From an uncultured delta proteobacterium (GTDB lineage: Bacteria; Desulfobacterota; BSN033; UBA1163), in the NCBI GenBank assembly GCA_963827685.1, contig CAWHBU010000007.1:1-64000 (forward strand): a DNA stretch of 64,000 bases, written 5' to 3'. Positions 22,055 to 22,803 of this stretch are shown here, piece after piece. The notes beneath the pieces are model-generated. The model did no database searches. It saw only the letters and a program-made list of their open reading frames with translations, and was not told the origin of the DNA. A program made the translations under genes and the position numbers. Within the stretch, counting starts at the first letter, position 1. Every line of letters begins with the position of its first letter.

Positions 22055-22803
22055 TTCCCCCCCCCGCACCATATTAGGTTCAGGGCCTGCCCTATACCAT
22101 GTTAGGTGCAGGGCCTGCTGCAAGAGGGGCGCCCTCCGCGCATGGGTTATTAGTTAGAAAATAACAACATCCATGGCTCGCTATTTAACCATGACATCAG
22201 TCATACGAGTCGCCGCCATGATTCAAAAAGATGGAATCGTCAATTTGAAAAAGAAAGAGATTTGAGATGGGATGGAGGACATGACAGGTTCAACGAAACC
22301 CGACATGGAAGAAAAAATGAGGGGGACCCCGATGTGGATTGCCAATTGACCTTCATTATATTACGAAACCCTACTCTCCCTTTGAAGGAGGAGCCTATCA
22401 TCTTTCTCTCCGCATTGAGACCCGTTTCGAGAACGGAACGACAGAGCGATAGACCATCTGAGTTGACAGAGGCTCCCAACCTTTTTCCCAATCGACTGCA
22501 CGTCCTTGAAATTTTCAGCAGGATTTCGATCGTTCTATACAGGATCATCGTTAGCGAACTCATCTTTTCTTCCCTGCCTGCGCCTACCTTCGGTAGACAG
22601 GGCAGGAAGGTCATATCAGGATCGACAAAATTCCTTTCTTCCCTCTATTCCACCACACCTTTCATCTTCTGACGACGGTGTTGATCTCAAATCCCCTGCT
22701 CGATGTCCCATGGCCAGTGATCCAAAGCAACCGTTCGGAAAGGGTTCCCTGTTTAAGGCTGTCCATGATAAATCTTCCGGCCACCCTGAACACCGCAGGG
22801 GAA
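22055..22803 (-). ncRNA. Large structured ncRNA candidate at the 6S RNA (ssrS) locus
   Basis: Lies between zapA and rny; 6S-like 5' end TCCCCTGCGGTGTTC; many colinear helices with minus-strand G-U pairs; boundaries uncertain. Confidence 0.55.

Follow-up and report, generated by a model that had tools for sequence, protein, structure and literature searches.

The window analysed here is a 64,000-nucleotide stretch of contig CAWHBU010000007.1 from an uncultured, Syntrophaceae-like bacterium, and the locus of interest is the gap between zapA and rny; all features described below lie on its minus strand. The upstream gene is zapA (22806-23126; Pfam ZapA, E 6.6e-22), whose stop directly abuts the RNA element, and the downstream gene is rny, encoding RNase Y (20399-21979; Pfam RNase_Y_N, KH and HD domains). 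Between them lie a 113-nt 5' hairpin, here called H1 (22692-22802), and a rod-like fold-back RNA of approximately 440 nt (22236-22676), which carries a small open reading frame, orfX (22240-22563; 107 codons plus UGA). A few nucleotides past the basal helix of the rod the sequence has a U-run (22225-22229), kept in relatives as a U-rich tail; this run is no canonical intrinsic terminator and the terminator scan did not call it, and the same scan reported a weak terminator-like hairpin 3' of the rod (22171-22194). REP-like repeats, which are missing from several relatives, lie between the rod and rny (22062-22118). Another REP-like hairpin is inserted at 22571-22610; its presence varies among relatives in the spacer alignment, and related genomes have copies of it, at about 90% identity, on many of their contigs. 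The distance from rod to rny is 260 nt in the window, including the REP-like repeats, whereas short versions in relatives have the rod tail about 16 to 30 nt before the rny ribosome-binding site and the ORF stop about 30 nt before the rny start. This distance is therefore not conserved. The element occurs once per genome, in strictly syntenic position.

The position is that of 6S RNA, as the first-pass annotation had correctly recognized. In Smithella a canonical 6S gene is found directly 3' of zapA and 5' of rny, the order zapA-6S-rny returns in six sister-family genomes, and a Nitrospiraceae MAG likewise has a canonical 6S 3' of zapA. ZapB-ZapA-SsrS is described as a known conserved array in which the E. 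coli 6S RNA is cut from a longer transcript (PMC7641849), and 6S RNA itself is reported in nearly all bacteria (PMC8414754). The 6S model RF00013 gives no hit in the window at its gathering score, none in 21900-22950 or in 14 family loci at E<=10, and none in the window's own genome at E<=1; in total it is found in 0 of 25 family genomes (24 plus the window's own). In four other families it is found in 6/8, 1/1, 1/1 and 1/1 genomes. A literature search on 6S RNA in combination with Syntrophus, zapA or Deltaproteobacteria did not return the element.

What is left of 6S at this locus appears to be H1. Using nhmmer, the H1 profile matches the first 66 to 70 nt of RF00013-positive 6S genes in six of 20 target loci (E 4.7e-10 to 1.8e-6), and the genes matched are the canonical 6S genes of the sister family; judged by eye, the 3' strands are alike as well. 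By sequence comparison H1 is homologous to the 6S RNA gene: the first ~66 nt and the sequences of the closing stem are common to it and the sister-family 6S, as is the place directly 3' of zapA. The consensus fold keeps the closing stem and the second stem of 6S; of its terminal arm and central bubble only a 24-nt loop is left, which contains a 5-bp mini-hairpin. Its helices are 82 to 93% paired in 17 homologous spacers, with compensatory changes. Unlike 6S RNA (RF00013), H1 has no covariance-model match (E<=10) and lacks the combination of closing stem, large central bubble and terminal stem-loop that acts as an open-promoter mimic. Since terminal arm and large bubble are gone, the promoter-mimic architecture that defines 6S is absent from H1. 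As part of the overall reading given below, and with the same even odds, H1 would be a shrunken remnant of a 6S RNA gene from which the arm and bubble needed for open-promoter mimicry have been deleted. If 6S survives throughout the family only as a conserved stub, this would be a natural case of 6S loss, and the remaining role of the stub would then be in question.

The rod is a different matter. Its profile has no match in canonical 6S genes and no Rfam family matches the long fold, as a check against Rfam confirmed. The idea of an expanded 6S-type RNA put forward at first pass was consequently dropped: only the separate hairpin 5' of the rod resembles 6S.

The nine pairings proposed earlier for this region are all complementary on the minus strand. 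When 22175-22732 is folded as minus strand it reaches -189.7 kcal/mol (z = -2.91, 100 dinucleotide shuffles), against -154.2 kcal/mol and z = -1.33 for the plus strand, so that the suggested strand-specific folding holds. Differences are more pronounced for the rod alone (spacer positions 126-585), where z is -3.75 in sense and -0.68 in antisense orientation (60 shuffles). A G-U asymmetry had also been claimed, and with 31 of 189 pairs in the minus-strand fold against 10 of 156 in the plus-strand fold it is real. Individual helices include one of 15 bp (22307-22321/22559-22573, -19.3 kcal/mol) and one of 12 bp (22364-22375/22517-22528, -15.9 kcal/mol). At the base of the rod 22669-22676 pairs with 22236-22243, and the apical hairpin (22422-22436) has -4.2 kcal/mol. 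The apical domain varies in length among genera, in multiples of three.

Comparison with relatives shows which of these helices are kept. A consensus of 155 pairs, drawn from 17 homologous spacers, shows 87.0% pairing, compared to 84.5 +/- 0.3% after shuffling (none of 500 shuffles does as well) and no more than 56.7% with slid partners; it holds 50 double-change pairs against 28.6 +/- 3.8 in shuffles, where it should be noted that consensus structures and pair counts come from the same alignments. A similar tendency is observed for the central region in 35 sequences (77.9% paired, 74.2% shuffled, at most 58.5% slid). The inner helices thus covary in the aligned sequences, and a long fold with covariation support, as expected from the first pass, is present. 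The nested series then proposed stands for these inner helices only. Its three outermost members (22213-22219/22672-22678, 22186-22198/22702-22716 and 22175-22182/22726-22732) are 65.3% paired against 65.9% in shuffles, of which 370/500 equal or exceed the observed pairing, and their 5' partners belong to the separate conserved hairpin H1 rather than to the rod. Similarly, in place of the pairing 22391-22396/22470-22475 relatives use another register.

The best-supported part of the rod is a core helix between 22518-22528 (5' strand, codons I-E-I-L) and 22364-22374 (3' strand, codons V-G-F-R). In 35 sequences it is 90.4% paired, and six of its 11 pairs have changed on both sides; non-synonymous changes on the 3' strand go along with changes on the 5' strand. 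Next to it is a large internal loop, with 14 nt on the 5' strand (22529-22542) that are unpaired in the consensus folds and code for part of a conserved N-terminal helix, and 12 nt on the 3' strand (22352-22363, codons N-I-M-K) with a conserved AUAUAA-like motif. As a candidate DNA -10 box for rny this motif was rejected: it has no -35 partner, and the promoter scan made no call.

As the codons already indicate, most of the rod is occupied by a conserved open frame, and the earlier statement that the gap has no credible coding sequence does not hold. Of 35 relatives, 27 show one frame without any stop, with up to 12 and mostly 2 to 12 stops in the other two frames. The remaining eight relatives have one or two stops in it, in five cases (L002, L006, L007, L009 and L013) at the REP-like insertion. 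By chance, a stop-free frame is obtained in 0.15 to 6.1% of dinucleotide shuffles for each of 20 ORFs. The length of orfX ranges from 81 to 115 codons, and lengths of the ORF region differ among relatives by multiples of three. An indel tally from pairwise nucleotide alignments consisted mostly of compensating alignment artefacts and was set aside. At the aligned start AUG is found in 31/40, plus one GUG. Gene predictors have called orfX repeatedly (85 cluster representatives in a 1.84-billion-protein library), although in the window's assembly it is unannotated and in public collections it is known only as 'hypothetical protein'; six of eight word-indexed relatives carry this name and two are unnamed. 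Overall, the frame is kept open with in-frame length changes across diverged relatives, as expected for a protein-coding gene, and this conservation across the family leads us to infer that orfX is translated.

Constraint on the peptide itself is weak. Relatives can be aligned, and the conserved blocks coincide with the unpaired internal loop; 37 members have no Pfam or NCBIfam match at a meaningful E-value, and orfX belongs to no described family. For 15 pairs dN/dS is 0.27 to 1.21 with near-equal change at the three codon positions, a measure to be read with the fact that RNA pairing also constrains synonymous sites; the zapA control gives 0.03 to 0.19 and a strong third-position excess. The AlphaFold model (mean pLDDT 61.6, pTM 0.27) is confident in the first ~20 residues only, offers no confident fold and does not have the quality needed to search for similar folds. 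The 19-residue window of highest hydrophobicity falls within the first ten residues in 31 of 40 peptides, and the N-terminal window has a Kyte-Doolittle value of at least 1.6 in nine of the 40. The product is thus modelled as a fast-evolving peptide with one confident hydrophobic or amphipathic helix at the N-terminus, and orfX is possibly a young gene. A GGAG/GAGG/AGGA core precedes orfX in only 7/40, against 39/40 for rny.

The two halves of orfX are largely complementary to each other, and its non-synonymous changes follow base-pairing. In particular, the purine tract with the AUG (22559-22573) forms the 5' strand of the 15-bp helix, pairing with a CU-rich stretch 250 nt downstream inside the ORF (22307-22321, codons P-S-F-F-L-P); the equivalent of this helix is 86.9% paired in 35 sequences. 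More generally, helices that are 85 to 93% paired (17 spacers) join the conserved, purine-rich untranslated leader (22564-22676) to the pyrimidine-rich 3' part of orfX. It looks as if the C-terminal codons of orfX are set by their pairing with its start region. Constraint at the RNA level seems to act outside the ORF too, given that the untranslated 5' arm is conserved and that in relatives with a REP-truncated ORF the downstream arm is still conserved; we count this for the reading that follows.

We put the probability at about one half that the gap holds two adjacent sense-strand elements, a 6S stub and, beside it upstream of rny, a fold-back, self-occluding mRNA for a small and possibly young protein. 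The occlusion is modelled: for positions -12 to +3 the predicted mean unpaired probability has medians of 0.16 (complete RNA) and 0.57 (nascent RNA), and in 31 of 32 cases the complete RNA has the lower value. The 15-bp helix would shut in the purine tract with the AUG, and the UGA stop (22240-22242) is part of the basal helix. Ribosomes would then load only during RNA synthesis, before the downstream partner is made, or alternatively once the fold has been opened or cut, whereas the finished RNA would be stable and shut to translation, much like hok, dinQ and zorO, whose primary transcripts are translationally inert. Several observations count against this reading: the canonical Shine-Dalgarno core is rare before orfX, the peptide is weakly constrained and its structural model poor, and two purine tracts can pair with the one CU stretch, the alternative register of which would free the start.

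It might be argued that rod and ORF are mainly a cis-acting leader of rny, in which translation or its failure remodels the fold and so sets how much transcript reaches rny; translating would matter here and the peptide would not. Rho might gain access to the C-rich 3' arm, the U-rich tail might be a processing site, or the leader might be cut by RNase Y itself. The close approach of ORF stop and rod tail to rny in the short versions would fit, as would the weak constraint on the peptide, the stop codon within the basal helix and the structured pre-rny spacers seen in other families of the class. There is also precedent: B. subtilis RNase Y is reported to autoregulate by cutting its own 5' UTR (PMC10303841), and in E. 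coli the ssrS transcripts undergo processing and are terminated by Rho ahead of the downstream gene, according to work cited in PMC7641849. Like that B. subtilis UTR the element is a leader 5' of rny and a candidate RNase Y substrate, but it is much longer, rod-like, ORF-containing and from a different phylum. Against a leader, however, speak the unconserved distance to rny (260 nt with REP-like repeats in the window), the conserved peptide blocks where the RNA is unpaired, and a length of some 100 codons, very long for a leader ORF. Neither was any pairing seen between the rod and the rny ribosome-binding site. We regard this explanation as doubtful, yet worth keeping in mind.

Much less probable is a giant non-coding RNA with an incidental frame, serving as a 6S- or Ms1-type RNA polymerase decoy in which the 14 x 12-nt internal loop between conserved helices mimics a promoter bubble. 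The 6S locus, the failure to find canonical 6S in the 25 family genomes, the rod shape and the large conserved loop beside the best-supported helix, with its AUAUAA-like motif on the 3' strand, all agree with such a role. Moreover, a 6S-1 cut down to the bubble and two arms is reported to work still in vitro (PMC8876501), and Ms1 of Actinobacteria is a precedent for larger 6S-like RNAs: it is rod-like, related to 6S in shape and was found through synteny where canonical 6S is missing (PMC9130861). Ms1 is non-coding, however, and the Rfam scan gave no sequence or model match to it, while the rod holds a conserved ORF whose frame stays open, with length changes of 3n, through a variable and unalignable apical domain in many lineages. 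Nor does the rod profile resemble 6S, and sister-family genomes have both canonical 6S and a long spacer with complementary arms, which is a poor fit with the rod as 6S replacement. We give least credit to a type I toxin-like module, in which fold-back pairing would silence the mRNA of a membrane-active peptide until processing activates it, as described for dinQ, zorO and hok (PMC5066626, PMC5397157, PMC9841398). Shared with those systems are a long structured transcript, a small ORF whose ribosome-binding region is hidden by long-range pairing (here by prediction only) and the notion that activation comes while the RNA is being transcribed or once it has been processed; the N-terminal hydrophobic window would suit a membrane peptide. 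But orfX, with its 81 to 115 residues, exceeds the usual small (<~60 aa) hydrophobic toxin, is only moderately hydrophobic (the N-terminal window is at 1.6 or above in just 9/40) and has one fixed, strictly syntenic copy per genome instead of being mobile or multi-copy. Also, no antisense RNA was found, and in 21800-23600 the promoter scan made no call on the plus strand.

The self-occluding mRNA thus remains our preferred reading, and the sister family may give a hint of its origin. Genomes there that have canonical 6S also carry, in the same place, a long spacer with complementary arms that has no open frame and shows non-3n indels. This may represent the older state. An nhmmer profile of the sister-family spacer gave no match at E<=1 in 44 spacers, so that homology between the spacers of the two families is not demonstrated; further, the sister-family fold has only 5/97 compensatory pairs and, in the case of L104, does not exceed shuffles (z 0.01). 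Structured spacers upstream of rny occur in other families of the class as well. It is conceivable, though rather improbable, that a structured non-coding rod of the rny-leader type became protein-coding in this family, perhaps while 6S was being reduced to a stub. In this scenario we would have a dual-function RNA, giving a small newborn protein from two mutually complementary halves and perhaps having taken over a 6S-like or RNase Y-directed role through its conserved 14 x 12-nt loop.

Dual-function RNAs combine a regulatory RNA structure with the coding of a small protein; SgrS/SgrT, RNAIII/hld and SR1/SR1P are examples. Our element resembles them in having a covariation-supported structure and a conserved small ORF on one transcript; the difference is that orfX takes up most of the structure instead of lying next to it. 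The rod is a rare clean case of nucleotides that are constrained both by RNA pairing and by a reading frame. It may serve as a test bed for the co-evolution of coding and structure, for de novo gene birth from structured RNA and for co-transcriptional, 'one-shot' control of translation. For annotation, the zapA-rny gap should be regarded as neither empty nor a simple ncRNA.

The whole unit is probably on a transcript running from zapB and zapA through to rny. Small shares of the stretch are found in five metatranscriptomic RNA runs. Contigs from four of these, with 85 to 95% identity, cover rny, rod and zapA alike, in a form from which strand, ends and level are not readable. They do not cover 22044-22180, a region that varies among relatives anyway. 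Contigs from RNA libraries are no proof, but they hint at transcription of the element in relatives, one of which has a 564-nt contig spanning 22270-22833.

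The spacer between zapA and rny appears to hold a fold-back RNA (the rod, 22236-22676 on the minus strand) carrying a conserved, fast-evolving small open reading frame whose start is occluded by the RNA itself, as far as sequence and structure models show. Pfam gives the minus-strand gene order zapB (23163-23438), zapA (22806-23126), the 826-nt spacer, rny (20399-21979) and ymdB. The first-pass annotation had described a giant non-coding RNA in this spacer: its observation is largely right and its interpretation half right. The sense-strand fold is for the most part confirmed, but a conserved frame lies inside it. 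Nucleotide searches matched the spacer in 21 of 41 related genomes (14/14 in the genus apart from the window's own genome, 20/24 in the family, 0/16 outside it). Including loci fetched through ZapA, there are 60 zapA-rny spacers, 44 of them distinct, and 37 of these 44 are matched by a profile built on roughly 665 conserved nt. By eye, the five family spacers left over and locus L111 show the same core motifs with a shorter rod. Spacer positions (p) are related to window coordinates as 22806 - p.

All nine helices listed in the first-pass annotation are complementary on the minus strand. Over its interval (22175-22732) the minus strand folds with -189.7 kcal/mol (z -2.91) against -154.2 kcal/mol (z -1.33) for the plus strand, and the isolated rod gives z values of -3.75 (sense) and -0.68 (antisense). 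The G-U asymmetry was also recovered: G-U pairs make up 31 of 189 in sense and 10 of 156 in antisense. An Rfam scan of the gap gave no family match, even at E<=10. RNAalifold on close relatives separates two domains: a 5' hairpin (p4-114; 22692-22802, minus strand) and the long rod (p130-570). Comparative support is somewhat inflated because the alignments used for counting were identical to, or overlapped with, those behind the predicted structures: the whole consensus (155 pairs, 17 sequences) is 87.0% paired, compared to 84.5 +/- 0.3% when shuffled (0/500 reach it) and at most 56.7% when slid, with 50 double-change pairs against 28.6 +/- 3.8 in the control, and the central region (66 pairs, 35 sequences, family-wide) is 77.9% paired, compared to 74.2% (0/500) and at most 58.5%. 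Pairing reaches 90.4% in an 11-bp core helix (22518-22528/22364-22374), where six pairs have changed on both sides. The three outermost helices proposed earlier do not hold: over 17 sequences they are 65.3% paired against 65.9% when shuffled (370/500 reach it; slid 32.5-52.0%), without an excess of double-change pairs. They fail because their 5' partners belong to the 5' hairpin, and therefore the nested rod spans 22676 to 22236 rather than 22732 to 22175.

The statement that the gap has no credible coding sequence is contradicted by a conserved open frame, orfX (22240-22563, minus strand, 107 codons and a UGA stop). A minus-strand frame of 124 aa aligns in tblastn to more than 20 relatives with zero stops. 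Between fixed anchors (p237-563) one frame is wholly open over 81-117 codons in 27 of 35 spacers; the other two frames contain at most 12 stops, in most cases 2-12. Eight spacers are left, with one or two stops, and five of these (L002, L006, L007, L009, L013) have a REP-like insertion after p498 at which the ORF ends. Differences in anchor-to-anchor length are divisible by three (lengths of 327, 333, 339, 351, 285, 270, 249 etc.), although the apical part is unalignable between genera. The translated frames can be aligned and share two blocks: one at the N-terminus, of the type MGLIPIIVLKLIEIL, and GF[RH][ND]IKK..WK.P.G...F.PCRV. Of 40 aligned starts, 31 have an AUG and one more has a GUG. 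Dinucleotide shuffling of 20 diverse ORFs leaves the frame free of stops in only 0.15-6.1% of trials. Against 1.84 billion representatives the orfX profile retrieves only small predicted proteins, 85 in number; none of the eight word-indexed relatives has a name beyond 'hypothetical', and searches of Pfam and NCBIfam with the peptides returned no family.

Several measures count against a well-behaved protein. For orfX dN/dS is 0.27-1.21 and change is spread almost evenly over the codon positions; zapA in the same genome pairs has 0.03-0.19 and a strong excess at third positions. A Shine-Dalgarno core precedes the orfX AUG in 7 of 40 cases (39/40 for rny). AlphaFold is confident about the N-terminal helix only (mean pLDDT 61.6), and this helix is moderately hydrophobic (median Kyte-Doolittle 1.29; at least 1.6 in 9/40).

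Frame and fold are interlocked. The strands of the core helix encode I-E-I-L and V-G-F-R, a large internal loop (14 x 12 nt) encodes the two best-conserved peptide blocks, and the UGA stop sits inside the basal helix. Within the core helix, changes in the 3' strand frequently alter the amino acid (G to E, R to H, F to S) and track those in the 5' strand. Because of these changes, the conservation of the untranslated 5' arm and that of the 3' arm where the REP insertion shortens the ORF, RNA pairing is under selection in its own right, and the open frame likewise appears to be. The purine tract and AUG (22559-22573) form a perfect 15-bp helix with P-S-F-F-L-P codons (22307-22321). In partition-function folding, the finished RNA has positions -12 to +3 largely base-paired (median unpaired probability 0.16), and these are far more open (0.57) in a transcript ending 60 nt past the AUG; in 31 of 32 cases the start region is predicted to be more closed in the full RNA than in the nascent form. 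The CU-rich stretch at 22307-22321 has a second possible partner, a purine tract at p164-174, and pairing in that alternative register would free the start. Among the candidate functions, a self-silencing mRNA for a small protein ranks best.

Ranked second is a leader of rny whose ORF would act through translation. Co-transcription with rny is suggested by short versions, in which 16-30 nt lie between the rod tail and the rny ribosome-binding site. A terminator scan found a weak terminator-like hairpin (22171-22194, minus strand), and the U-run after the rod is no canonical terminator since it lies 4-7 nt from the helix. The sole sigma70-like site found in the promoter scan is upstream of zapB (23448-23420). 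Four studies provide metatranscriptome contigs of relatives that cover the rod element, among them one of 564 nt spanning 22270-22833, though contigs cannot show strand, ends or level. A toxin-like module is placed fourth, behind the self-silencing mRNA, the leader and an RNA polymerase decoy.

The decoy, ranked third, touches on the history of the locus, which was correctly recognized as that of 6S RNA. Smithella has a canonical 6S (RF00013, 92 bits) directly 3' of zapA and 5' of rny, and a Nitrospiraceae MAG has one with the same score, likewise after zapA. Neither the window's own genome nor 24 others of the family gave an RF00013 hit, but 'not found' cannot be taken as 'absent', as the control search detects 6S in just 5 of 14 well-known genomes; functional 6S may have been lost across these 25 genomes. 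Outside the family it was found in 6/8 genomes of a sister family, 1/1 in each of three further families and 0/5 in another. A 5'-hairpin profile (24 rows) searched against 20 loci matches six sister-family 6S genes (E 4.7e-10 to 1.8e-6), exactly on their first 66-70 nt. Compared to one of these genes, the hairpin keeps the closing-stem strands, second stem and 5' bubble strand and misses about 70 nt (terminal arm and 3' bubble strand), and it therefore represents a deleted 6S gene, so that 6S would survive here only as a stub. This stub is conserved and covarying (helices 1-5 of the consensus), and lost in five family members. The proposal of an expanded 6S was rejected for the rod, whose profile matches nothing in 6S genes.

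The rod fits poorly as a replacement for 6S, because sister-family genomes with a full 6S also carry a complementary-arm spacer, judging from their sequences. There, 435-452 nt separate 6S from rny; the 5' arm of this stretch is rich in purines, its 3' arm in pyrimidines, and the two are complementary. Their consensus has 97 pairs of which only five are compensatory, and one member folds with z = 0.01. None of the reading frames is kept open, indel lengths are not divisible by three, and a profile search showed no similarity to the rod of the window. A zapA-rny spacer from a third family (about 380 nt, without RF00013 or a window-type rod by sequence) folds as a long hairpin on either strand (z about -3 each).

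The rod of some species, but not of others, contains an inserted GC-rich REP-like hairpin repeat of about 40 nt (22571-22610, minus strand, in the window), of which copies with about 90% identity occur on many contigs of related genomes; the truncating insertion after p498 marks a second site. REP-like short repeats between rod and rny (22062-22118) recur with 87-97% identity in many places on four contigs of the own genome and in relatives. At 23495-24478 (minus strand) lies a release-factor gene with PCRF and RF-1 domains. Its ORF, taken from the ATG, aligns to the profile from position 12, and the gene may be prfB, with the usual programmed frameshift near its start. A complete rRNA operon (12371-17845, minus strand; 16S, two tRNAs, 23S, 5S) is located about 4.5 kb downstream of the locus.
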